A stretch of 64,000 nucleotides of DNA from an uncultured Gammaproteobacteria bacterium (GTDB taxonomy: Bacteria; Patescibacteriota; Microgenomatia; UBA1406; GWC2-37-13). The stretch lies in the NCBI GenBank assembly GCA_964530235.1, contig CAZGYB010000004.1, positions 10,668 to 74,667 of the forward strand, given 5' to 3'. Of the stretch, positions 3,128-63,512 are shown one piece after another; within the stretch, counting starts at the first letter, position 1, and each line of letters begins with the position of its first letter. A program made the position numbers and the translations under genes. A model generated the notes under the pieces. The model did no database searches and had not been told where the DNA came from. It saw nothing but the letters and a program-made list of their open reading frames with translations.

Positions 3128-5914
3128 TTAAATTTTTAACAGTTCTTTAACTTTCTCTCTTAAACCTCCTGAGCGTGGAATTGAACTCAACCCTTTTTTG
3201 TTATGAGAAATTTCTGTAATGATACTTTTTAATTGTTCTGCGGTAAAAAATTCCTGGAATCCGCATAAACCTTGTAGTGAATCAAGTGTTTGGAACAATT
3301 CATCGAGTGTCTTTACTTGTGCAAACGGTAAAACTTCTATTTGATTGTCTTCAAGTAAGCGATCTATCGGAATACGTTTTTCACGTAGCTGTGCAGCATT
3401 AACGACGATTGCTTGGTTCTCATCACTGTTAAATCCGACAATCTGCCAATTATCTTCAACTCGGCCGTCTGTACGAGTAACATTAACAAACCTCCCTCGC
3501 CTAAGTTCAAACGTGCGACCGGTTTCATTTGCTTTTCCGGTAAGAACTACATCACGATCATAACGAGACATAAAGGTAGGTGTTACCGGAATATTCATCT
3601 TTTGCATGTATGCAGCAACATCAATTTCATGATCTTGAAATCCGGCAAGCGGATTGTTATGGAGGAATTGTAATGCATGCAGCCATTCTTCCATAGCAAC
3701 TAATGCGATTTCCTGTCTTAGCTCAGAGGGTATATTTCCTTCAGCTCCACCGATAGTAATGCTTTTCTGATCATGACTAAACCTTGACCATGATGCAATA
3801 ACGTCAGCTTTATCGGCAATTTCATCAGGACTTATTGGTTCGTTAATAAAATAAGAACGACCCGAAGCGATATAGTAGCCGTATTTTTTTGCTTCATTAT
3901 GTGCCTGAGTAAAATATCTGATAGCCTCTTCATATTTTTTTTCTAAAATCAGTTTGCCCCCTTTATTAATAAATTCTTGTAGTTGTATTGCTTCAGGGGA
4001 AAGGGGAACGAAGCTTTCAGGTTTCGCCGGTTGGGTAATAATACGTATTGCAGATACAACATCAGGAATACTGATTTCATCTAAATGTTGAGTCTGACTA
4101 ATTTTAATTTGTTCTGCTGGGGTTGGTTCAAGCAGGAATTTCCCGTTTCTTTTCACAACAACCCTGTCTTCATATTGGATAAGTCCTGGACAGTTCAGTT
4201 TTCTGATTACTTTAAATTTCTTTCCATCGGGGTATGAATTCAGTTTAGTAACATCGGGTTTTTCTGTTTTTTTCCAGACTACACGAGAATTAGCAGTACG
4301 TAATCTTTCGAGACGTTTCGCGTGGTTAACTCCGCTTTTATCGTCGTAGGGAACAATGCCAAGTGCATCGTCTATTTCTTGTCTTCCTGCAGCGTCGTAG
4401 GATTGTACTGAATACATTTCAGAAAACGATAGAGTGTCGTCGATAAAACACCGATATGAGGAAAGAAAGTTTGCTCTGTTTGCAGCACGGTGTTGAGGTT
4501 CAAGGGTAAATAGTTCTGGTTGCTGCTCTCTTGTAGTTTTATACGTTTTGAGAATAGTGTCAAGAACTTTTTCACGATCGGCCTGCTGGGATTTCGTAAC
4601 GTATACAACAAGAGAGTTCATCTCAACTGTAGGGTTTCCTGTTTCTTCTGTTACCAGTGCGACCTGTATATCTGATAGAACGCCTTGGTCAGCCAGATTT
4701 GTTAAAAAAGCGTAAAAAGCGTCAGTAGCTTTTCGGGGGTCTAAACTGATATAAATGCGGGTAAGTTTATCTTCGTACGGCGTCATTTTCGGTTCACGCT
4801 GTCCTATTATGTTGAGTTTGTAGTTGGGTCTATCTTCGACAAATACAGCATTGTCTTTTTTATCGGTTATTGAAAGGACTTTTTTCCCATTTACTTCAAC
4901 TTCAGAAACGGTTGCCTGAGGAAAACAACGTTGGGCTTCCTGAGTATTTGCTCTCTGAAGTTGATGGGTGATCGCACTCATATTCTCAGGTGTTTGAGGA
5001 ATGGTGCTGTCTGCTCCGTTAAACGACGGAAGCATTTGTTCATATATTTTTCCATATGAGGCATTACGCCATATTTCACGAACTTCAGTCCACGATTGTG
5101 CATCTACAATTTTTTGAAGCTCGTGTGGAAACGGATGAAGAACGGTTGATTTTTTATCAGGCGTTGTTGGTTCAACCCGCTGTGCTTTTGCTTTGTGCTT
5201 CAGCAGGAAGTCAATACAGTCTTTTGACCGCTGTTCCATACCGGATTCTGCAACAAAAGGAGCTGACTGAGCAACATATTCAGACGAGTCTGCAGCCCGC
5301 CTGACCTTTTCATACATTCGCTGGGTAAAAATATCTGCACTGAATTCCTGTCCGAACATATTTGCAAGCCAGCGGATTGCGGGTAGGTTTGCTTCAAATG
5401 CTGCGCGGTCAAATTGGTTATTGGAGCTAAAAACACTAAAAACTTTTTGTTCAAACTGTGCATAGTCTGACTTTCCGTTGCAGTATTGATTGTATATTTC
5501 CAGAGCATTTGCTTCGGTACATGAGGCAACATTGAGTCCAAACTTCTGAAAAAACTCCGCAAACTGTTTTCCCTGTTCTGTTTTGGTAAAAAAATCAGAG
5601 TTTGATTGTACTGCCCTAACAACATCAGCACACCATTTGCCAACTGCAGTATTTAACTGTTCCTTTGCAACCTGAGGCCGTTCAGATAGGGAAGCTCCTG
5701 CAATGAGCTGATCAACTTCTTTAAAATGGACCTGTTTATCCTTGGAAAGAGCATCTGGAGTCAATGTGGCTGGTGTTCGGTAATCAAGAAGACCGGGATC
5801 TGTTCCGGCAAGAGCAAGTCTGGCCTGCAGACCATGAAGGGGTGGGTAGGAGAGTGTTCGCTCCGGAGAGGTTAGTGTTTCAGTGTGTACTGGTGCGGGT
5901 TGAGGTTCGGACAT
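3128..5914 (-). CDS. large hypothetical protein: same N-terminal module, unrelated ~680-aa C-terminal part
   Basis: 928-aa uninterrupted ORF. The N-terminal 247 aa are identical to 1033..3054. The C-terminal part has no family I can recognise by eye. Confidence 0.65.
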   Translation of the reverse strand: MSEPQPAPVHTETLTSPERTLSYPPLHGLQARLALAGTDPGLLDYRTPATLTPDALSKDKQVHFKEVDQLIAGASLSERPQVAKEQLNTAVGKWCADVVRAVQSNSDFFTKTEQGKQFAEFFQKFGLNVASCTEANALEIYNQYCNGKSDYAQFEQKVFSVFSSNNQFDRAAFEANLPAIRWLANMFGQEFSADIFTQRMYEKVRRAADSSEYVAQSAPFVAESGMEQRSKDCIDFLLKHKAKAQRVEPTTPDKKSTVLHPFPHELQKIVDAQSWTEVREIWRNASYGKIYEQMLPSFNGADSTIPQTPENMSAITHQLQRANTQEAQRCFPQATVSEVEVNGKKVLSITDKKDNAVFVEDRPNYKLNIIGQREPKMTPYEDKLTRIYISLDPRKATDAFYAFLTNLADQGVLSDIQVALVTEETGNPTVEMNSLVVYVTKSQQADREKVLDTILKTYKTTREQQPELFTLEPQHRAANRANFLSSYRCFIDDTLSFSEMYSVQSYDAAGRQEIDDALGIVPYDDKSGVNHAKRLERLRTANSRVVWKKTEKPDVTKLNSYPDGKKFKVIRKLNCPGLIQYEDRVVVKRNGKFLLEPTPAEQIKISQTQHLDEISIPDVVSAIRIITQPAKPESFVPLSPEAIQLQEFINKGGKLILEKKYEEAIRYFTQAHNEAKKYGYYIASGRSYFINEPISPDEIADKADVIASWSRFSHDQKSITIGGAEGNIPSELRQEIALVAMEEWLHALQFLHNNPLAGFQDHEIDVAAYMQKMNIPVTPTFMSRYDRDVVLTGKANETGRTFELRRGRFVNVTRTDGRVEDNWQIVGFNSDENQAIVVNAAQLREKRIPIDRLLEDNQIEVLPFAQVKTLDELFQTLDSLQGLCGFQEFFTAEQLKSIITEISHNKKGLSSIPRSGGLREKVKELLKI

Positions 5915-5915
5915 A
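5166..5915. repeat. copy B of the 750-bp perfect direct repeat
   Basis: Identical to 2306..3055. Confidence 0.95.
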
Positions 5916-5959
5916 ATTAAAAATATATGCGTTACTGAGGATAAAAAGCAATAGTATTT

Positions 5960-7144
5960 TTAACCCCCAATTTTAAACTCTACCACATCCCCGTCCTTCA
6001 TCACATAATCCCGTCCTGCGCTTACCACTTTTCCGAGTTCACGAGCCTTTGCCCATCCATCGCAGTTTACAAAATCTTCATAGGAGATAATATCAGCTTT
6101 AATGAATTTTTTCTCAAAATCTGTGTGGATTGTTCCGGCAGCTTGTGGCGAAAGAGTGCCTTTTTGTATAGTCCAGGCGCGTGCTTCTAGTGTTCCTGCG
6201 GTGAGAAACGAAATAAGTCCGAGAATTTCGTACGATTTTTTAATGAGTCGGTTGAGTCCGGTATCTTCAAGTTTATATTGATTCAAATACTCTTTTTGTT
6301 CGGGAGGGGAGAGTGCGAGAATATCATTTTCAAGTTTGGCGTTTAAATAAATGAAGTTATAATCGGTTGAAGTCGGCTGAGACGCACCTTCGTTAAAACT
6401 TCGTTGGGCAAGTCGGTTGGAATCGGTCCGATTAAAACTGGTTTCAACTGATTTTAACTTATCAAAGACTGATTGAATCTGTTTTTCCGTTTCGTTCTTT
6501 TTTTCAAGTTGTTCTTCGGAAACATTAAAGGCATAAATTACCGGTTTTATGGTGAGTAGATTCAGTTGTTTTACCATTATCTTTTGCTCGTCAGTTAAGA
6601 TGATATTTCGCGCCGGAATTCCTTTGTTTAACTGTTCCTCGAGTAAGGTAAGAAGTGTGGTAAGCTCGGTTTGACTTTTCACTTGTATTTTTGACTTTTC
6701 ACTTTTGCCTTTTGATTTTCCAATGGTTTCAAGATCTGCGAGAATAAGTTCGGCTTCAATTGTCTCTATATCACTTTTCGGATCAACCCGATTTGAAACA
6801 TGAATGACATTGCCGTCCTCAAAGAGCCGTACGACATGGACAATCGCGGAAACTTCACGGATATGGGACAGAAATTTATTTCCGAGACCTTCACCGACGG
6901 ATGCGCCTTTTACGATTCCTGCAATGTCATAAAATTCAACTACCGCGGGAACAATTTTTTCCGTTTTTACGATTTTGGCGAGCGCAGGAAGCCGTTCATC
7001 CGGCACTTCAACGATTCCGACATTCGGCTCGATCGTACAAAACGGATAATTCGCTGCGTCCGCAATCTGTTTTTTCAAAAGTGCGTTAAAAAGGGTTGAT
7101 TTGCCAACGTTTGGCAACCCTACAATGCCGATACTCAATTTCAT
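5960..7144 (-). CDS. ychF: redox-regulated/ribosome-binding ATPase YchF
   Basis: P-loop [34 protein letters not shown], and a C-terminal ...[37 protein letters not shown]... segment typical of YchF/OLA1. At 394 aa it includes a ~31-aa insert (see the repeat at 6361..6453). Confidence 0.9.
6361..6453. repeat. 93-nt palindromic in-frame insert within ychF
   Basis: The arms AATCGGTTGAA (6361-6371) and TTCAACTGATT (6443-6453, reverse complement AATCAGTTGAA) match 10/11. Inside are repeats of AAGTCGG and CTTCGTT and the palindrome AATCGGTCCGATT. The insert encodes ...[31 protein letters not shown]..., which I do not recall in other YchF proteins. Confidence 0.55.
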
Positions 7145-10002: not shown

Positions 10003-10396
10003 CTTTATTGCAATAGAACCGCTTGGATTGAAAGGGTTGCATTGCTGAACCCATAGAGATCACAAGCAAATTGCTCTGATTTACCTATGGGTTCCTGAAG
10101 ACTTGTTGCTTGAGTGCAGTGTCTTGAAGAGTATCCTTGTAAAAAAGGCTTATTTCAGCCTTACATATATATTTTAGACAATAAGATCAAGATTTATTAC
10201 TCGATATTTTATATAATGAGTTTCAGTTCGATCGACCTACAACCCTCTGGTTTTCCAGGTGGCATGGTTGAAATCCAGGTTATGGGACGAGAGCTCCTCG
10301 TCAAGCTTTCCATAACCTGGTCTTATCCCGAAAGGGATATGGGTAGATTCCGAAAGGAGTTTACCGGCTTGCGAGGAGCTTTTTTGTGGAGTATAT

Positions 10397-55667: not shown

Positions 55668-55705
55668 AATCAGTTGCAATCAGTTGCAATCAGTTGCAAT
55701 CGGTT
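55668..55705. repeat. tandem 10-mer (AATCAGTTGC) x3.5
   Basis: cagttgcaat occurs three times exactly (55671-55700) and is followed by cggtt. It marks the GC-rich/AT-rich transition. Confidence 0.9.
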
Positions 55706-56217: not shown

Positions 56218-56976
56218 TTACTTTCTCCGTGTCATGGTTAATTTAAGTCCTGCGCCGATCATACCGATCTGTCCGGCAAGGAGGACAAGTCCCATTTCAG
56301 GCCCGGCCTTTGGTGTTGCCTTTGCGCCAATGACCTGTTTTTCTACACAAATCTGTGCGGTATCTTCATCAGATACATTTCCGTTGTATGCTTGAGCGCG
56401 GTTTACCATACAGAACAGCCCTTTGTCAGCGGGCATTTTGTCCTGAGGGTAAAGCTGCATTTTAAGTTGATACGTTTTTTCTTCATCCGCCGCAAACGAA
56501 CCGGCATCGAAGGTAATGGTTCGATTTGTAGCATCGAATGTTCCCGGACCTTCAACCGGATCGATATAATTTGGAACAAAGTCTTTGACCGTTACATTTG
56601 AAAGGGTTGTGTTTGATGTATTTTTTACTTTTAGTCGAAACAGTACCTGTCCTCCCGGTGAATAGCGTACATCAGCAGGTGAGAGGTTGTCGACATATTC
56701 ATAGGAAACAACACCACCTTTGGTTTGGGTTCCCCCTGGTTTTGCAACGAGTTTGTCAATAACAATACTTTGAGTTGATGGAGTTCCGCCGTATTGACCA
56801 TATTGTCCGTACTGACCAGAGTCAGCGAGAACTCGTGGAGCGTGTAACGTGTAACGTGTAACGTAAAAAAAAGCAACTAAGAACAAAATTATTTTTGCGA
56901 TTTGCGTTATGCGTTTCGCATTATGCATTTTATATTTCATAGTGGGTATTATACTACAGGACTTATCATTTGTCAA
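56218..56976 (-). CDS. DUF11-like surface protein with a C-terminal sorting-signal-like anchor (true start ATG 56940, MKYKMHNAK)
   Basis: PGGQVLFRLKVKNTSNTTLSNVTVKDFVPNYIDPVEGPG fits the DUF11 repeat. The C-terminus is TPKAGPE, a hydrophobic helix, then TRRK. The TTG 'start' at 56976 is actually the -35 box of its promoter. Confidence 0.6.
   Translation of the reverse strand: MTNDKSCSIIPTMKYKMHNAKRITQIAKIILFLVAFFYVTRYTLHAPRVLADSGQYGQYGQYGGTPSTQSIVIDKLVAKPGGTQTKGGVVSYEYVDNLSPADVRYSPGGQVLFRLKVKNTSNTTLSNVTVKDFVPNYIDPVEGPGTFDATNRTITFDAGSFAADEEKTYQLKMQLYPQDKMPADKGLFCMVNRAQAYNGNVSDEDTAQICVEKQVIGAKATPKAGPEMGLVLLAGQIGMIGAGLKLTMTRRK
56841..56863. repeat. left arm of a perfect 23-bp inverted repeat (GTGTAAC heptads)
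   Basis: CGTGTAACGTGTAACGTGTAACG is the exact reverse complement of 57040-57062. It lies inside the coding sequence and encodes VTRYTLH. Confidence 0.95.
56948..56976 (-). promoter_or_regulatory. consensus sigma70 promoter giving a leaderless or near-leaderless mRNA
   Basis: On the minus strand: TTGACA, a 17-nt spacer, TATAAT, then 7 nt (ACCCACT) before the ATG at 56940. Confidence 0.7.
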
Positions 56977-57039
56977 CTATAGGACATATCTCAAAACGCG
57001 AAGCGTGTAACGCGAGGCGTTTTGTGATAAAATAATCCG

Positions 57040-57062
57040 CGTTACACGTTACACGTTACACG
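57040..57062. repeat. right arm of the perfect 23-bp inverted repeat (GTTACAC heptads)
   Basis: CGTTACACGTTACACGTTACACG ends 2 nt before the ATG at 57065. Confidence 0.95.
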
Positions 57063-57064
57063 TT

Positions 57065-57706
57065 ATGCGACTCAATGCTAAAGAGATGCGGACTGTTGAT
57101 GAAGCGGAAGCGAAACAGCAGCTTGCCAATCTCAAACGCCACCCAATTTTCTTTATCCTTGAAAATATTTATGATACCTATAATATCGGCGGTTTATTCC
57201 GCTTAGCAGATGCAATTGGGGTGAGCAAGATATATTTATGCGGTGAAACCGAGATTCCTCCGAATTCGCGAATCAAAAAGGCATCGATCGGGACGTATAA
57301 GGTTGTGCCGTGGGAGTATAAACGGAGTTCAGAAGAAGCAGTATTGGAATTACGAAAAAAGTTCATAGTTGATAGTTCGCAGTTGGCGGAACTAAAAAAG
57401 TCACAAAGTACCAACTATAAACGGCAAACTAAAAACTACGACCCTCCAACTACAAACTCTTCTTTACAGGTAATCGCTATTGAACAGTCTCCGCAATCCG
57501 TGCCATATACCCAGATTGACTATCGCTTTCCGGTTGCACTCATTATGGGGAATGAGACATACGGCGTGCTTCCTGAAACGATCAAGTTGGCAGACCATAT
57601 TGCAGAAATCCCGATGTGGGGGATCAATAAGAGTTTGAACGTAATCGTATCCGCCTCAATTGTGAGTTATTGGATTATGAATAAGTTTAGAGTCGGTAGT
57701 TTATAG
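57065..57706 (+). CDS. SpoU/TrmH-family RNA 2'-O-methyltransferase
   Basis: ILENIYDTYNIGGLFRLADAIGV, VALIMGNETYGV and IPMWG.NKSLNVIVSASIVSY are the three SpoU motifs. The gene contains a 31-aa insert. Confidence 0.8.
   Translation: MRLNAKEMRTVDEAEAKQQLANLKRHPIFFILENIYDTYNIGGLFRLADAIGVSKIYLCGETEIPPNSRIKKASIGTYKVVPWEYKRSSEEAVLELRKKFIVDSSQLAELKKSQSTNYKRQTKNYDPPTTNSSLQVIAIEQSPQSVPYTQIDYRFPVALIMGNETYGVLPETIKLADHIAEIPMWGINKSLNVIVSASIVSYWIMNKFRVGSL
57368..57460. repeat. 93-nt heptad-periodic palindromic in-frame insert in the trmH-like gene
   Basis: The left arm is GTTGATAGTTCGCAGTTGG. The right arm is AACTnnn heptads (CCAACTATAAACGGCAAACTAAAAACTAC...CCAACTACAAACTCT). It is homologous to 62165..62239. 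Confidence 0.75.
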
Positions 57707-57715
57707 TTTACAGTT
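57695..57715. repeat. left inverted-repeat arm (nnnAGTT heptads) flanking the four-helix-bundle gene
   Basis: GGTAGTTTATAGTTTACAGTT matches the reverse complement of 58082-58102 (GGTAGTTTGTAGTTTGAAGTT) at 18/21 positions. It overlaps the last codons and stop of the trmH-like gene. Confidence 0.8.
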
Positions 57716-57728
57716 AAAATATATAAAC

Positions 57729-58076
57729 ATGAGCACTTATAAAGACTTGGTAGTTTGGAAGAAAAGTATGCAGTTATGTGAAGAAGTGTATAAGGTTACT
57801 AAAAAATTTCCCAAAGAAGAACAGTATGGGTTGAGTTCACAGATAAGAAGAGCGGTAATTGCGATTCCATCGAATATTGCAGAAGGTCAAAAACGTTCTT
57901 ATAAGAAAGAATTTATTCAATTTCTACGGATTTCTCTTGGATCAGGAGCCGAACTTGAAACACAGCTGGAAATAGCGAGGAGGATTGGATATATAAATGA
58001 GGAAAGTTTTTTTAAACTAACAGCGCTAATTGTTGAAATTATGAAAATGCTCCAAAGCCTAATAAGATCACTTTAG
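57729..58076 (+). CDS. four-helix-bundle protein (23S rRNA intervening-sequence protein / Avd-like family)
   Basis: YKDLVVWKKSMQLCEEVYKVTKKFPKEEQYGLSSQIRRAVIAIPSNIAEGQKR....F.QFLRISLGSGAELETQLEIA is the hallmark of this family. Confidence 0.85.
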   Translation: MSTYKDLVVWKKSMQLCEEVYKVTKKFPKEEQYGLSSQIRRAVIAIPSNIAEGQKRSYKKEFIQFLRISLGSGAELETQLEIARRIGYINEESFFKLTALIVEIMKMLQSLIRSL

Positions 58077-58081
58077 CTTTT

Positions 58082-58109
58082 AACTTCAAACTACAAACTA
58101 CCAACTATC
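58082..58109. repeat. right inverted-repeat arm (four AACTnnn heptads)
   Basis: AACTTCA AACTACA AACTACC AACTATC, ending 8-10 nt before the 3' end of tRNA-Thr. Confidence 0.8.
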
Positions 58110-58119
58110 AGCTATTCGG

Positions 58120-58191
58120 AGCCCAAAGCGAGAATCGAACTCGCGGTCTTATTCTTACCAAGAATACGTTTTACCACTAAACTATTTGGGC
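58120..58191 (-). tRNA. tRNA-Thr (anticodon GGU)
   Basis: Hand-folded 72-nt cloverleaf. Acceptor stem GCCCAAA/TTTGGGC and D stem GTTT/AAAC. Anticodon stem TATTC/GAATA with loop TTGGTAA. Variable loop AGACC, T arm GCGAG-TTCGATT-CTCGC, discriminator T. CCA is not fully encoded. Confidence 0.85.
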
Positions 58192-58203
58192 ACTTAAAGC
58201 AAA

Positions 58204-58857
58204 TTATACCGTACCTGATCCTGGGAAAGGGATAAACAGAGGTAATAATACATTTAATGCAGGCTGAAGAACGCCGTCAAGAAGGGATGATCTGCCGATA
58301 GGAATAATAAGAAGGATAAGAAAAAGCATTCCATAGCGCTGTAGCTGATACCACTCCTCTGCTTTACGCTCGGGAAGGATTCCTCCAACGATTTTAAATC
58401 CGTCAAGCGGGTGAATAGGAATAAGGTTAAAAACGCCAAGCACGAGGTTCATCATGATGAACCGGCTGAGAATAATAAATCCTATAGTACTTATTCCCGG
58501 AATTGCAACAAATGTGAACAAACGAAGGATGATAGAAAGTATCAGCGCGAGAAGTATATTTGATATCGGTCCGGCAACTGAGATAAGCGCTGCATCTTTT
58601 CGCGGATTTTTTAAATTATATGGGTCAAACTCAACCGGCTTACCCCAGCCGAATCCAAAGAACATAAGAAACAGAAGGCCGGTAAGATCGATATGAACAA
58701 AGGGGTTGAGAGTGATGCGTCCGGCAAGCCGTGCCGTCGGGTCGCCAAGCCGGTCTGCAGTCCATGCGTGGGCGCACTCATGAATGGCAATCGCCACAAG
58801 AAGACTGACGATACTGACAAGAAAAATGATTGGACTGGTAAAAAAAGTACTGAGCAT
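58204..58857 (-). CDS. site-2 protease family (M50) membrane metalloprotease
   Basis: HECAHAWTA (HExxH) in TM1, GRITLNPFVHID, and NLIPIHPLDG. It has about 6 TM helices. Confidence 0.85.
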   Translation of the reverse strand: MLSTFFTSPIIFLVSIVSLLVAIAIHECAHAWTADRLGDPTARLAGRITLNPFVHIDLTGLLFLMFFGFGWGKPVEFDPYNLKNPRKDAALISVAGPISNILLALILSIILRLFTFVAIPGISTIGFIILSRFIMMNLVLGVFNLIPIHPLDGFKIVGGILPERKAEEWYQLQRYGMLFLILLIIPIGRSSLLDGVLQPALNVLLPLFIPFPGSGTV

Positions 58858-58858
58858 A

Positions 58859-58887
58859 TTGATTTCCGGTATCTCCTATGATATCAT
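58859..58887 (+). promoter_or_regulatory. sigma70-like promoter for rpmB
   Basis: TTGATT, a 17-nt spacer, then TATCAT. The spacer and -10 contain the 12-bp palindrome TATGATATCATA. Confidence 0.35.
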
Positions 58888-58899
58888 AAAAACTCATTA

Positions 58900-59256
58900 T
58901 TGAAATCTATGAAATGTTATCATTGCGGAAAAGGCATACTTTTTGGCAGGACACACACCCATCATCGGGGTGTAGCTGGAGGCAGATGGAAGAAACGTGC
59001 TCCGAAGAAACAGCGCATTTTTGAGCCGAACCTACAGCCGGTACACATTCTCATTGCAGGAAAACTCAAGCGGGTGAAACTGTGTACTCGTTGTTTAAAA
59101 CGGGTCCGGAAAGACATTCGTGATGGCAAAAAACCGTTTGTTACTCTCGCAAAGCTTCAACCTCAACAGTCTGAAAAAAAAGAAGTTCAGAAGGAACCGG
59201 TGAAAAAGAAAACGAAAAAAGTAAGGGCGAAAAAAACCACAAAGAAAGCAGAATAA
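58900..59256 (+). CDS. rpmB: 50S ribosomal protein bL28 with a Lys-rich C-terminal extension (start likely ATG 58909)
   Basis: MKCYHCGKG...G...HH.......R.FEPNLQPV.......KRVKLCTRCLK matches the bL28 pattern. It is followed by ~50 aa of K/E/Q-rich tail. Confidence 0.8.
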   Translation: MKSMKCYHCGKGILFGRTHTHHRGVAGGRWKKRAPKKQRIFEPNLQPVHILIAGKLKRVKLCTRCLKRVRKDIRDGKKPFVTLAKLQPQQSEKKEVQKEPVKKKTKKVRAKKTTKKAE

Positions 59257-59260
59257 TCTT

Positions 59261-60397
59261 CTATTGAGTGCACACTTCAATTGTAAATATTCCTCCTCCA
59301 GAGCAGTTCATTTGAATAGGTGGCATCTGAAGGGGAACACTTCCGCAGTCGCATACTCCTGATGAGCAGTTCGTACAGTGGGCTCGTGCGCAGACTCCCA
59401 TGGTGCAGGTACACGGGCCGTATGCACCGTTTGCCAGATTATAGGTTCCGCCACCGGCAAGAGCCGGTTTTACCGCATGACAGGTTCCGGGTTGAGGAAC
59501 CGGCGTGCTGGTAGGAGTTCGGGTTGGAGTGGGGGTTGCGGTTGGACTATGAGTCGGTTGAGGTGTTGCAGTTGGGCCCGGAGTCGGAGTTGCAAGGGGG
59601 GTTGACGTCGGTGTTGGCGTCATGGTTGAGGAAGGGGTTGGTGCAGTAGTTATAGTTGGTGTTGGGGTAAATTGAACAGTTGGGGTTGGATGCTCTGGAG
59701 TGGGCGAGGGAGTAGAAGCGATGGTTGGGGTGGCAGAAACAGTCGGCTGTGTGGTGGGTGTTGGGGTTGGATTGTGTAACCAGTTGACTTCAGGTTTAAC
59801 CGGATTTACGCCTAAACTGTAGAGAAGGAGGGAATAGTCCTGACCGTCAACAATGCCATCAATGTTGATATCTGCTTTTCCCAGCGAATCCGTATCGTTT
59901 CTTCCCAGATATTGAAACAGGAGAGATGCGTCTGCCCCGTTAATTGATCCGTCATTATTGAGATCGCCGACATAAAACGGTACTGCTGTGTCCTGAATGG
60001 TCTGGCCGTTGGCTTGCAAAATAATTTCTGGACCGGTGCAGTTTTCTTTGTTTGGAACCGCGCAGATTAATCGAGCTACGGCGAACTGTGGCTTGATGAG
60101 AAACGCGTAGAATTCTGTTAAATCCGGATCGGGGAGGGAAACTGCGGTGTGATACTGTTTGTTAACCTGATTCAGTTGCACATCACCAAGCGTGAGAATC
60201 TCTTTTGAGCGGTTATACACCTGTATTGTAGCTTTTCGCGCACCCGAGAATACCTGCGTGCCCTGTACTGCAAAGGTAAAAGCCACAGATACATTGCTTG
60301 CTCTGCTTGCAATGCTCTGCATAAAGATAAGAAGAAAAAAGAAAGTAAAAATTACTCCTGCAATAACAAAACTTCGAAACGGTTTGACGGTTGTCAT
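59261..60397 (-). CDS. membrane-anchored dockerin protein with a Thr/Pro linker and a C-terminal Cys-rich domain
   Basis: Canonical type-I dockerin repeats [22 protein letters not shown] and [22 protein letters not shown]. The C-terminal ~75 aa contain 12 Cys. Confidence 0.6.
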
Positions 60398-60409
60398 ATT
60401 TTCACTATA

Positions 60410-61051
60410 ATGAGAGCAGACTTAATGCTTATGATAGCAAAAAAATATGCGTCTTTTTTAGGATCATTTATTTTGGGATTCTTTATTATGTTTTTGATCC
60501 ATCTTCTGTATGCGCATGAATGGTCAGTACAGCGGGATCGCGATATAAAGAGTGTAAAACAGGAAACATCCGTAGGTCCAACGACACGTCCCCTTACCCA
60601 AAATGAAATCCTGATTCTTGCAGATAAAGCTAAAAAAATGTCCGGATATGAAAAACAATTGGTTACTTTTGGCTCCCGTACGGTTTCACAGAACGGAAAT
60701 GTGACTACTATTGACCTCTTGATTAAGGGACCTGAAAAAACACTGATGGATGCCGCTGATATCCGGTTGGATTTTTCCCAGGGAATTGAGGTCTTGCAGG
60801 TTGAGAAAGGAAAAGCATTTTCTTCATATCCCCATATTTCCGTACGGGGCGCGAGTATTCTTGCGACCGGAATCGCCGATATATCGGATGGTCAAATCAG
60901 CTATGGTTTGATGAATTCCACATTCATTCGGGTTACCCTTCGGCAGTTTGAGAAAACAGGTACCGTGAAAATCATTTCCGAAGGAACAAATGTGTACCTT
61001 ATGGGAGAATCGATTTTGGATCGAACAAAAAGTATAGACAAACTTCTTTAA
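60410..61051 (+). CDS. membrane-anchored cohesin-like protein
   Basis: TM, then [35 protein letters not shown]...[19 protein letters not shown]. It is divergent from the dockerin gene with only a 12-nt spacer. Confidence 0.45.
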
Positions 61052-61057
61052 TCGGAG

Positions 61058-61891
61058 TTATTTCCAGATCCAAGTAGCAAGAATACGTTCGAGTTCTTTC
61101 TGTTGTGTTGTTCTGTTTTCTGTATCAGATGCTGTGAGCAGTTCAAAACCGGTTAAAGGGCTTCCGTTTGCCTCGTAGGTGTTGGGAAGGTACACAAACA
61201 CATGTGTTGTTTGCACTGATTTGTTAGCGTATTCCGTTGTAACTTTGTATCCTTCTTTTCCCCCGACTTGAACCGGAACAGTCTCAACGGTTGTTTCGTC
61301 GCTTCCGTGTTGTTTTTCAAGGGCTAGCCATTGTGTGCCCATATCCTCAGAGTTCGCATATGTTTTATTGTGCAGAAATACCGAAAAACTAACACTTGTA
61401 TCAGGAAGATTTGCATCAGGAAACGTGCGGAAGGTCAGATCACAGTTATTTTCTTTTCCCACCTCATGTTTTTGGGGAAGTGCAAGGGTAAAGCAAAGCG
61501 TTTCTTTTAAAACCGCTTGTTCTGGTTGCGCGGAAAGAGAAGCATCCTGTGTTGGAAGAAGCGTCGGTGGAGGAATTGATATGGACGGGGTTATTTTGAC
61601 CATATTTTTTTGTGATTTTTCTAGCGCTTGAGTGAGGAGTGTTGCTTTTTGATGCATGATAAATCCATAAAATCCTCCTCCAATACCGACCAAAAGGCAA
61701 ATGAGTGAGAAGAATACACCGAGCGGATTACCCTTGCGTGCTGTGTACACCGGCGGGATATCTATATCCGCAGGAGTTTGTTCGACCGGTAACGGCTGAG
61801 GTTGGGGTGGTTGTTGAGTAGGTAGTGGTGTTTGCGGAGTCGGATTTTGTGTTGAGGTTGCTGTCATATAAGTATAACAATATTCTTTCAT
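61058..61891 (-). CDS. hypothetical membrane-anchored protein with a Pro/Gln-rich N-terminus
   Basis: 277 aa with one TM (LGVFFSLICLLVGIGGGFYGFI). Confidence 0.45.
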   Translation of the reverse strand: MKEYCYTYMTATSTQNPTPQTPLPTQQPPQPQPLPVEQTPADIDIPPVYTARKGNPLGVFFSLICLLVGIGGGFYGFIMHQKATLLTQALEKSQKNMVKITPSISIPPPTLLPTQDASLSAQPEQAVLKETLCFTLALPQKHEVGKENNCDLTFRTFPDANLPDTSVSFSVFLHNKTYANSEDMGTQWLALEKQHGSDETTVETVPVQVGGKEGYKVTTEYANKSVQTTHVFVYLPNTYEANGSPLTGFELLTASDTENRTTQQKELERILATWIWK

Positions 61892-61915
61892 ACTACCGGA
61901 AAAAGAGGGAGTTTG

Positions 61916-62482
61916 TCAATACCGCAGAGGAACGAGTTCGCCGTTTTTTTCTTCAAACAACTTTGCACTTTGTTCAACAGCCCTTTGGGTAAAGAGAATT
62001 CCGTTGAGATGGTCGCATTCATGCTGGATAATGGTTGCCTTGAATCCCGAAAACCAGCGGGATATGGTTTTCCCTTCAAGATCCTGGTATGAAAGGAATA
62101 CCTTAAAACTGCGTGAAACAGGACCCCAGATACGAGGAATAGAAAGACAACCCTCAAGTTTTGTAGAGTTAGGAGTTGGTAGTTTATAGTTTTTAGTTTG
62201 CAGTTTATTTCTGTGAACTACTAACTGCGAACTGTCAACATTTTTTAATATTTTAGGATTAATAAAAACCTCTGTTTTTCCTTTGGGTGTAGGTTTCATA
62301 ATAAATAATGTGAGACTAATCCCTACCTGTGGCGCAGCCAGACCAACTCCTTGAGGGTCAACCTGAGCAATAAGCGTTTCTTCCATATCAAATACTAGCT
62401 TTTTAATCTTTCGGTTGATTTCGGTTACGGGTAATGCGGGAATAGTAAGCACTTTCTGGGGTATTTGAACAATCTTAAGCAT
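61916..62482 (-). CDS. def: peptide deformylase
   Basis: The three Def motifs are present: GVGLAAPQVG, EGCLSIP and HECDHLNG. A ~25-aa insert lies just before EGCLS. Confidence 0.9.
   Translation of the reverse strand: MLKIVQIPQKVLTIPALPVTEINRKIKKLVFDMEETLIAQVDPQGVGLAAPQVGISLTLFIMKPTPKGKTEVFINPKILKNVDSSQLVVHRNKLQTKNYKLPTPNSTKLEGCLSIPRIWGPVSRSFKVFLSYQDLEGKTISRWFSGFKATIIQHECDHLNGILFTQRAVEQSAKLFEEKNGELVPLRY
62165..62239. repeat. 75-nt heptad-periodic palindromic in-frame insert in def
   Basis: In the coding sense it reads GTTGACAGTTCGCAGTTAG...CTGCAAACTAAAAACTATAAACTACCAACTCCTAACTCT and encodes VDSSQLVVHRNKLQTKNYKLPTPNS. The arms are mutually complementary heptads. Confidence 0.75.
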
Positions 62483-62597
62483 GGGATTATTATATAATAT
62501 GAACTATGCAATCTCCAATATTCAACGATCAACTACCAATCAGAGATCCTGTGTTTATTGAATCAATGAAAACAGCTTGAATTTTGAGAATTAAATT

Positions 62598-63512
62598 ATG
62601 AAATTATCATTAGCAATCGCTACTTATAACGAGGAGAAACACATTGCAGACTGCATTGCTTCATGCGAAGATCTCGTTGATGAGATTATCGTGGTTGATG
62701 GATCATCATCCGATAAAACTCGTGAAATTGCAAAATCGCTTGGTGCACAAGTGATTACAACCGAAAATCGTGTGATGTTTCACACCAATAAACAAAAAGC
62801 AATGGATCTGGCGACCGGCGATTGGATTTTACAGCTTGATGCAGATGAACGGGTAACCCCGGATCTTGCACAGGAAATAAAAAAAGTGATGCTCCTGTCA
62901 AAGGAAGAATTAGAAGCATATCAAATAAATCTTCCGGAAAGAAAACTTTTTATCCGTCATCAACAGATTACAAATCCTAAACTCCAAACCCTAAACCACA
63001 GTCAGACGTTCAATTCCCAATATAATGCCTTTTATATTCCACGCCTGAATTATTTTTTGGGTAAATTTCTTCGCTATGGGGGAGTTTATCCGGACGGAGT
63101 AATCCGTTTAGTGCGCAAAGGAAAAGCATTTTTGCCGTGTAAAGATGTTCATGAACTGATGCGGGTTGAGGGAACAATAGGGTGGCTGCAAAATCCGCTC
63201 CTGCATTATGACTCGCCTACGTTCCTGAGATACTTGGAACGAAATAAACGATATATAAAGCTGTTAACCGGTGAAATAAAAAGCAATATGCAAAGCGTCA
63301 AAATTAAAAATAATGGTCACAAGCTAATAGTTTTTAAAGAAGAAATTTTATTGGGTATTAACTGGTTATTTGTGAAACCCATTGTTTGGTTTTTCATGAC
63401 AACATTCCGTCATAAAGGGATTTTGGATGGCTGGAGGGGAGTGGTATTTTCTTTCTTTTCCGCCCTTCGTTTCCCCCGGGCATATATTTGCTATAAACTG
63501 AAAAAAATATAG
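62598..63512 (+). CDS. family 2 glycosyltransferase
   Basis: LSLAIATYNEEKHI, IIVVDGSSSDKT and LQLDADE (DxD) form the typical GT2 N-terminal domain. Confidence 0.8.
   Translation: MKLSLAIATYNEEKHIADCIASCEDLVDEIIVVDGSSSDKTREIAKSLGAQVITTENRVMFHTNKQKAMDLATGDWILQLDADERVTPDLAQEIKKVMLLSKEELEAYQINLPERKLFIRHQQITNPKLQTLNHSQTFNSQYNAFYIPRLNYFLGKFLRYGGVYPDGVIRLVRKGKAFLPCKDVHELMRVEGTIGWLQNPLLHYDSPTFLRYLERNKRYIKLLTGEIKSNMQSVKIKNNGHKLIVFKEEILLGINWLFVKPIVWFFMTTFRHKGILDGWRGVVFSFFSALRFPRAYICYKLKKI

Follow-up and report, generated by a model that had tools for sequence, protein, structure and literature searches.

What a run of palindromic, repeat-built DNA is doing inside the reading frame of a peptide deformylase is the question raised by the def gene of the stretch analysed here, 64,000 nucleotides of contig CAZGYB010000004.1 (assembly GCA_964530235.1, positions 10,668 to 74,667), referred to below as the window. 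The gene lies on the minus strand at 61916..62482, encodes a peptide deformylase (Def) of 188 residues, and contains at 62165..62239 an in-frame element of 25 codons, VDSSQLVVHRNKLQTKNYKLPTPNS, built from 7-nt units (heptads). The reading preferred here, at a probability of about 0.6, is that the segment is a heptad palindrome which lacks an open reading frame (ORF) of its own, resembles the intervening sequences (IVSs) of 23S ribosomal RNA (rRNA) genes, and is tolerated in a permissive loop by analogy with the Rickettsia palindromic elements (RPEs). It would be a member of a genome-specific family of heptanucleotide-repeat palindromes ("heptad hairpins"), and the same family would form the inverted arms of a neighbouring four-helix-bundle (4HB) gene cassette.

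The host gene is intact, and its assignment rests on motifs, family and fold. All three catalytic motifs of the set GxGxAAxQ, EGCLS and HExxH are present (G45VGLAAPQ, E110GCLS and H154ECDH), PF01327 is assigned to an identical database protein, the Def fold is recovered, and solved Defs match the protein with an E-value of 1e-22 (phmmer). The top Def matches are from Candidatus Roizmanbacteria, a lineage of the candidate phyla radiation. Programmed frameshifting, bypassing and an intein were each considered for def and dropped, as all motifs share the frame of one uninterrupted ORF. An earlier note on this DNA had counted 57 residues between GxGLAAxQ and EGCLS, of which about 20 were thought to be surplus and to be encoded by an in-frame insert; the same count was obtained here, positions 62165-62239 map exactly to residues 82-106, and the surplus agrees with the alignment of solved Defs, which covers residues 2-81 and 109-169 of the query and leaves 27 query residues facing 6 in 1ws0 (Bacillus cereus Def1). 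A phased-heptad search resolved the element into a long arm of six perfectly phased (NNNAGTT) heptads at 62167..62205 (plus strand) and a short arm of three (AACTNNN) heptads at 62216..62233 (plus strand), separated by a spacer of 10 nt. On the mRNA strand the long arm consists of AACT heptads, translated as KLQTKNY KLPTPNS with a period of 7 residues, and the short arm reads GTTGACAGTTCGCAGTTAG, translated as VDSSQL. The two arms do face each other as AGTT and AACT heptads, as had been proposed for a self-complementary pair, but the pairing is imperfect, the repeat search returning arms of 23 nt with 78 % complementarity; if an outer stem is counted in, the palindrome extends over about 62156-62243.

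A sister element is found in frame in an unrelated enzyme of the window, a SpoU/TrmH-like methyltransferase of 213 residues (PF00588) encoded on the plus strand at 57065..57706. This element, KKFIVDSSQLAELKKSQSTNYKRQTKNYDPPTTN, occupies 57354..57464 (plus strand), with a short arm at 57360-57384 and a long arm at 57413-57458, and it is oriented relative to its host gene in the same way as the def copy; at this place 49 residues of the trmH-like protein face about 20 in solved structures of TrmH. Read in the sense direction, the elements of def and trmH can be aligned over their full length, interrupted by a single 25-nt gap in the middle. Their long arms are identical at 34 of 42 positions with the heptad variants in the same order, and only 5 of the 720 permutations of the def heptads score as well. 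The short arms are identical at about 18 of 20 positions when the register is moved by one heptad (an alignment read by eye), and the string GTTGAYAGTTCGCAGTTRG is common to both short arms and is translated as VDSSQL in both proteins. Judged on this alignment, the two segments are to be regarded as copies of one element, as had been claimed. The arms are about 82 % identical, whereas Def and its nearest orthologues share only about 66-70 %, so that copying or homogenisation would have taken place after the split from those relatives.

Where the segment lies in the folded enzyme was addressed with AlphaFold2, using the run based on a 120-sequence alignment; a run with 31 sequences was dropped for its low confidence even over EGCLS. 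The model has a mean predicted local distance difference test score (pLDDT) of 88.4 and a predicted TM-score of 0.84, and only residues 88-105, which lie between the strands 71-82 and 109-112, fall below a pLDDT of 50. Compared with 1ws0 by Foldseek, it gives a target-normalised TM-score of 0.88 and a root-mean-square deviation of 1.9 Å. The insert is thus probably an outward, disordered extension of a beta-hairpin loop, with the predicted Def core undisturbed. The earlier description of an insert next to the active-site cysteine stands as regards sequence, the segment being near Cys112, but in the model it is a disordered loop beside an intact core. Nor is the host a canonical enzyme hit once: the segment from INP to LEGCLS is 17-40 residues long in all 120 Roizmanbacteria Defs compared (median 27, window 32), so the loop is expanded and hypervariable in 120 of 120, and the part of the claim that held is that the extra segment is real. 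The closest Defs (P0002, P0005 and P0006) have loops of 21 residues without a hairpin, which puts the net gain of the window Def over its nearest relatives at about 11 residues and supplies the presence/absence difference between relatives that the earlier note had proposed to look for.

The DNA of the Def loop was read at ten loci, namely the window and nine related loci (L202-L210). DNA hairpins were found in all eight long loops of 32-39 residues, with z-scores from -2.9 to -10 (window, L202, L203, L204, L206, L207, L208 and L210), and in neither of the two loops of 21 residues, where z is near 0 (L205 and L209, the closest relatives, at 66-70 % identity). The palindromes are not of one kind. 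AGTC- or GTC-phased heptads are present in L202, L203 and L206, and the palindrome of L208 is apparently heptad-like; 9-nt units make up those of L204 and L207; and the loop of L210 (6229-6327) holds an in-frame GTAGGG...CCCTAC doublet resembling a repetitive extragenic palindrome (REP), translated as GEQFIAPKIKGVINHAPT. The SpoU loop behaves similarly: it is free of an insert in L203 and L204, holds an A-rich heptad array with one arm only in L205, and carries GC-rich, in-frame palindromes unrelated to the window heptads in L202 and L206. Because differing palindromes occur at the Def and SpoU loops across lineages, both would be permissive sites that have been colonised repeatedly. Read from the loop DNA, the Def loop is a recurrent, clade-wide landing pad, with at least three unrelated kinds of palindrome across lineages and the window heptads as its current occupant.

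The same comparison bears on the idea that the Def loop is adaptive, for example in contacting the ribosome or a partner, and that its peptide has been selected for a composition rich in K, N, Q and T. At least 17 residues are kept in all 120 relatives versus 6-10 in solved Defs, and the loop is typically lysine-rich near its EGCLS side, as a selected contact might be. Against this, no conserved sequence was found in the loop among the 120 Defs and its length varies more than two-fold; the part beyond the 21-residue baseline coincides exactly with the palindromic DNA; the same peptide (VDSSQL...KNY...) is present in an unrelated enzyme; and the segment is predicted to be disordered. Adaptation of the peptide is accordingly regarded as quite improbable.

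As a separate observation on the related loci, a Y1 transposase gene (PF01797) is present in L207 at 1-358, about 2.6 kb from the def gene whose loop carries a palindrome of 9-nt units; searched with tblastn, L201-L210 contained no other Y1 transposase, L207 itself being the source of the query. The SpoU gene alone is flipped among these relatives, running opposite to def in L202, L205 and the window but the same way as def in L203, L204 and L206, while the M50 peptidase and CLIPPER genes around it keep their position (window 57065-58857 against L202-L206). The flip may have come about by inversion between inverted repeats on either side of the gene.

How far the heptad family extends was followed by a census of about 82 kb of this genome, made up of the window, 9.5 kb of upstream flank (L211) and 8.5 kb of downstream flank (L201). 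In the window, a four-heptad pattern has 11 matches versus 0.01 expected and there are 6 phased heptad runs versus 0.28 in shuffles, and all of these lie at three loci, the SpoU/TrmH-like gene, both flanks of the 4HB gene, and def; the 18 kb of extra flank contained no further copies. The strings that had been reported as common to def, the trmH-like gene and the 4HB flank are all exact matches in the window: AGTTCGCAGTT occurs at 57374 (plus) and 62223 (minus), TAGTTTTTAGTTTGC at 57424 (minus) and 62187 (plus), and the 15-mer GGTAGTTTATAGTTT at 57695 (plus) and 62178 (plus).

The third locus is a gene cassette located between the SpoU gene and a tRNA-Thr gene. Its 4HB protein of 115 residues is encoded on the plus strand at 57729..58076 (PF05635, 23S_rRNA_IVP; PF22296, bAvd). 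An AGTT-phased upstream arm (57684..57715, plus strand) contains the 15-mer that is identical to def 62178-62192, and a downstream arm (58075..58113, minus strand), which shows AACT heptads on the plus strand and is inverted relative to 57684-57715, abuts the tRNA-Thr gene (58118-58191, minus strand; Rfam). No 4HB gene is present at the syntenic position in five relatives, L202-L206. The SpoU gene ends within the upstream arm, its stop codon TAG falling at 57704-57706, and the C-terminus of its product reads NKFRVGSL in the window versus NKLVVISNDK in the closest relative L205, diverging after IMNK, from which it appears that the cassette rewrote the end of the gene. The 4HB arms can be aligned with the def arm in addition to sharing the exact 15-mer.

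Beyond this genome, 80 metagenomic loci encoding relatives of the 4HB protein (L121-L200) were collected, and the 68 with enough flank were counted, using an inverted repeat of at least 16 matches in 20 as the criterion and sequence 500 nt further out as controls. Inverted repeats bracket 58 of the 68 genes versus 2 of 46 controls, so that repeat bracketing is the rule for 4HB genes in the metagenomes surveyed, and strong 7-nt periodicity is seen at 35 of 68 loci versus 4 of 46 controls; period 8 occurs at 8 loci and periods 6 and 9 at none. The heptad unit varies by locus (TAGCTTT, TAGGTTN, TAGTGAN, AGTTAGT and others). The layout is that of the Coxiella 23S IVS (PMC4990558). No account of heptad inverted repeats bracketing 4HB genes as a rule was found in the literature, of which coverage was incomplete, the nearest descriptions being those of the Coxiella IVS and of the Xanthomonas and Nostoc heptamers (PMC4692102), along with a review of miniature inverted-repeat transposable elements. 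Three AGTT heptads facing three AACT heptads were found at a further set of at least 120 loci in a genome collection (L001-L120), for which the chance expectation, by our own estimate, is about 0.1. Among the matches listed, the phyla include Acidobacteriota, Bacteroidota, Cyanobacteria (including Nostoc), Planctomycetota, Chloroflexota, lineages of the candidate phyla radiation and others; the AGTT core is conserved in these palindromes, the 3-nt spacers are genome-specific and most copies are intergenic, and 116 of 123 AGTT/AACT elements are not spanned by a long open frame. A 4HB gene was detected beside only one of the 120 listed palindromes, L043 (phmmer and a hidden Markov model of 120 homologues), so the short palindromes are not generally next to 4HB genes. 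At L043, from a Bacteroidales genome, the order along 5481-5942 is AGTT arm, AACT arm, 4HB gene and AACT arm, an arrangement suggestive either of the entry of a 4HB gene and one arm into a pre-existing heptad palindrome or of the duplication of an arm.

These surveys invite a wider reading, namely that 4HB genes and inverted heptad arrays form a mobile or self-copying system, widespread in many bacterial phyla, that can seed ORF-less hairpins elsewhere, including in frame in essential genes, and of which the 23S IVSs would be a special case; within such a system the 7-nt repeat may be what the 4HB pentamer recognises. This extension is speculative, and we hold it to be rather doubtful.

Frame and orientation set a further constraint on the coding copies. 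Each of them, in def and in trmH, is open in one of the six frames, and that frame is the one used by the host gene. The G/T-rich strand carries TAG-containing heptads (TAGTTTN), and since the 7-nt period rotates TAG through the three frames, only the A/C-rich strand can be sense; it is read as a hydrophilic peptide of K, N, Q, T, S and P with a period of 7 residues. Folding of the def element gave -27.8 kcal/mol (z -4.5) for the G/T-rich plus strand and -13.8 kcal/mol (z -3.0) for the mRNA strand, and folding of the trmH element, in which the stem reaches the element ends, gave -14.8 kcal/mol (z -0.7) for the sense strand and -33.7 kcal/mol for the other. Pairing is weak in the mRNA since the G:U pairs of the other strand turn into A·C mismatches there. 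Stop codons suffice to account for the orientation shared by the two copies, and selection against a strong mRNA hairpin is inseparable from that effect.

It might instead be supposed that the hairpin is functional in cis as RNA or DNA, for example as a site for RNase III or for the 4HB pentamer, and places def and trmH under common post-transcriptional control. The position of the 4HB gene between both host genes and inside the same repeat would suit such a role, as would the near-constant bracketing of 4HB genes by repeats, the recurrence of AGTT-phased heptad palindromes with a conserved AGTT core across many phyla among the matches listed, and the fact that IVS stems are substrates of RNase III (PMC4990558). 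The folding results point the other way, the mRNA being the weak-folding strand in both hosts and the 4-bp helices of the def sense strand being broken by 3x3 internal loops, which makes them poor RNase III substrates, and the orientation is already explained by stop codons alone. In addition, the content of the loop is wholly different between related genomes, and Rfam, searched at a permissive E-value over 56900-62600, returned no family matching the heptad elements; at the gathering threshold it identified only the tRNA-Thr and a LOOT RNA in the whole window, and no rRNA. A role as a cis-acting hairpin is for these reasons considered very unlikely.

Several observations weigh against the preferred reading. 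In L205, the closest relative, the def site and the SpoU site both show weak, A-rich traces resembling heptads, so that the long arm may in part be ancient and resident and not a new insertion. The nearest Defs available for judging a recent gain are 67-70 % identical and none is a strain-level relative. In the roughly 82 kb covered, arrays of this family occupy just three loci, which lie together at 57.36-62.24 kb of the window, so the family is of low copy number or locally spread in the part of the genome read. A permutation test gave no significance for a common order of heptads in the def arm and the arms of the 4HB gene, and relatedness is accordingly claimed only at the level of the family; the repeat that the earlier note had described as common to def and the 4HB flank is borne out by the exact 15-mer and by membership of the same repeat family, but not by a common order of variants. 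No obvious target-site duplication was seen by eye in the flanks of the aligned def and trmH copies, and a Y1 transposase (IS200/RAYT-type, RAYT denoting a REP-associated tyrosine transposase) was not found in the window by tblastn, other transposases not having been scanned for. Classical transposition in particular is disfavoured by the L205 traces, the three clustered loci, the flanks without an obvious duplication and the negative search for a Y1 transposase. Neutrality of the element, finally, is assumed. The phrase "mobile-looking insert" used in the earlier note is therefore retained in part: the repeat family exists at the nucleotide level, while mobility is something that we infer, given three clustered loci, no obvious duplication and no Y1 transposase.

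Much of this would be expected if the segment had evolved in place as low-complexity DNA, through slippage of 7-nt units together with fold-back or template switching, the likeness to trmH arising by occasional conversion and no unit having moved. The range of Def loop lengths in the clade, 17-40 residues, is continuous; L205 holds one-armed, decayed A-rich heptads at both sites, to which the window mostly adds the AGTT arm; the three copies lie within 5 kb with no others in the DNA covered; and heptamer number is known to vary by slippage in the Coxiella IVS (PMC4990558). Other results are harder to accommodate. Palindromes unrelated to one another occur in the same loops (Def of L210, SpoU of L202 and L206), for which repeated foreign arrival is the easier explanation, both arms and their order are common to def and trmH, and repeats of this family flank a gene cassette that five syntenic relatives lack. 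Evolution wholly in place is on balance judged unlikely.

On the preferred reading of a tolerated heptad palindrome, the steps can be set out conditionally. After the relatives compared had split off, either the def or the trmH copy would have been copied from the other or from a shared source, and candidate routes are re-insertion into heptad targets, short-tract gene conversion between resident arrays, and hairpin-mediated template switching. The insert would be tolerated as the Def loop that joins the INP strand to the EGCLS strand is permissive, outward-facing and disordered, and it would be retained where frame, orientation and freedom from stop codons allow, to be read as a disordered hydrophilic loop. 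We infer that selection has acted here as a filter on selfish or neutral DNA and that the element is no adaptation of the enzyme. "Selfish" palindromes in reading frames have mostly been regarded as peculiar to Rickettsia, and the present case would place them in a bacterium of the candidate phyla radiation and in an essential, drug-targeted enzyme; no description of in-frame palindromes in genes of the candidate phyla radiation was found in the literature, with the same incomplete coverage. The apparent divergence of proteins from these bacteria is inflated by inserts of this sort, which can also lead alignments, phylogenies and structure models astray. The origin and mobility of rRNA IVSs and S23p proteins have been open since the 1990s, and heptad arrays offer a testable cis element.

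Other repeats are present in the window. A second heptad family consists of (CGTGTAA)3.4 at 56841-56864 and its inverted partner (CGTTACA)3.7 at 57040-57065, both 100 % regular, which bracket a divergent region of about 175 nt between a CLIPPER-like gene and the SpoU gene; (CGTTACA)3.7 ends at the SpoU ATG, and (CGTGTAA)3.4 is an in-frame part of the CLIPPER-like ORF, in its N-terminal region (FYVTRYTLH). An AAACCCT-type heptad array at 62972-62997 in a glycosyltransferase ORF is translated as NPKLQTLNHSQT, which resembles the peptide of the def insert. Tandem arrays of (TTTGACT)7 and of (AATCAGTTGC)3.8 are located at 6670-6719 and 55668-55705, respectively, and the LOOT RNA (RF03000) lies at 10234-10365 on the plus strand, scoring 64.4 bits against a gathering score of 46.4 (Rfam).

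Among known systems, the def element can be set beside short palindromic repeats, transposable elements, RPEs and IVSs. Heptamers of the Xanthomonas GGGAATC type and of the short tandemly repeated repetitive (STRR) type of Nostoc and Calothrix occur as inverted pairs and have no known function (PMC4692102). They share with the window element 7-nt units and genome-specific, convergent inverted pairs able to form stem-loops, but they are G-rich and intergenic and are discussed as G-quadruplex formers, whereas the element described here is A/T-rich with an AGTT core, is coding at two of three loci, and has a unit that is not GGGAATC, GGGGAYT or STRR. REPs and their hairpin-forming doublets (REPINs), associated with RAYTs, are likewise short imperfect palindromes that spread within a genome, and a REP-like doublet is present in the L210 Def loop; identity of the window element with REP or REPIN was rejected, as it is A/T-rich and heptad-periodic, has no terminal GTAG/CGTC tag, is not a GC-rich hairpin of 20-40 bp, and is accompanied by no Y1 transposase gene in the window. 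Terminal inverted repeats (23-nt arms at 78 % in def, and a stem reaching the element ends in trmH) recall miniature inverted-repeat transposable elements, of which the window element would be at most a candidate member.

The closer comparisons are with RPEs and 23S IVSs. RPEs (Ogata et al. 2000, 2002, as summarised in PMC10969869) are about 100-150 bp long, are not made up of 7-nt tandem units and occur in tens of copies per genome. As in that account, palindromic DNA is found here in frame in unrelated housekeeping genes of a reduced-genome bacterium, where it would be tolerated at the protein surface, and in-frame read-through, which characterises RPEs, is predicted at two of the three window loci, each stop-free in the host frame only. 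The window element differs in its length of 75-110 nt, its construction from heptads, its link to a 4HB cassette, its phylum, and its three clustered loci in about 82 kb versus tens of RPE copies per genome. The host is Roizmanbacteria-like by its best Def matches, so that the likeness to RPEs is one of analogy only. The IVS of the Coxiella burnetii 23S rRNA gene contains an S23p ORF and a 28-bp terminal inverted-repeat stem that is cut by RNase III, with two to three tandem heptamers whose number varies between strains (PMC4990558). The cassette at 57684-58113, with its inverted heptad arms and PF05635 ORF, matches the 23S IVSs of Coxiella burnetii and Leptospira in its components, and the def element has the same kind of stem without the ORF. 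The heptad unit is GACAGAT in Coxiella versus NNNAGTT here, and IVSs lie in helix 9, 25 or 45 of 23S rRNA and are excised by RNase III, whereas none of the window copies is in an rRNA gene: the cassette is intergenic, and the def and trmH copies lie in coding sequence and are predicted to be translated rather than excised. The window element is thus outside both the RPE and the IVS families, being RPE-like in its outcome and IVS-like in its architecture.

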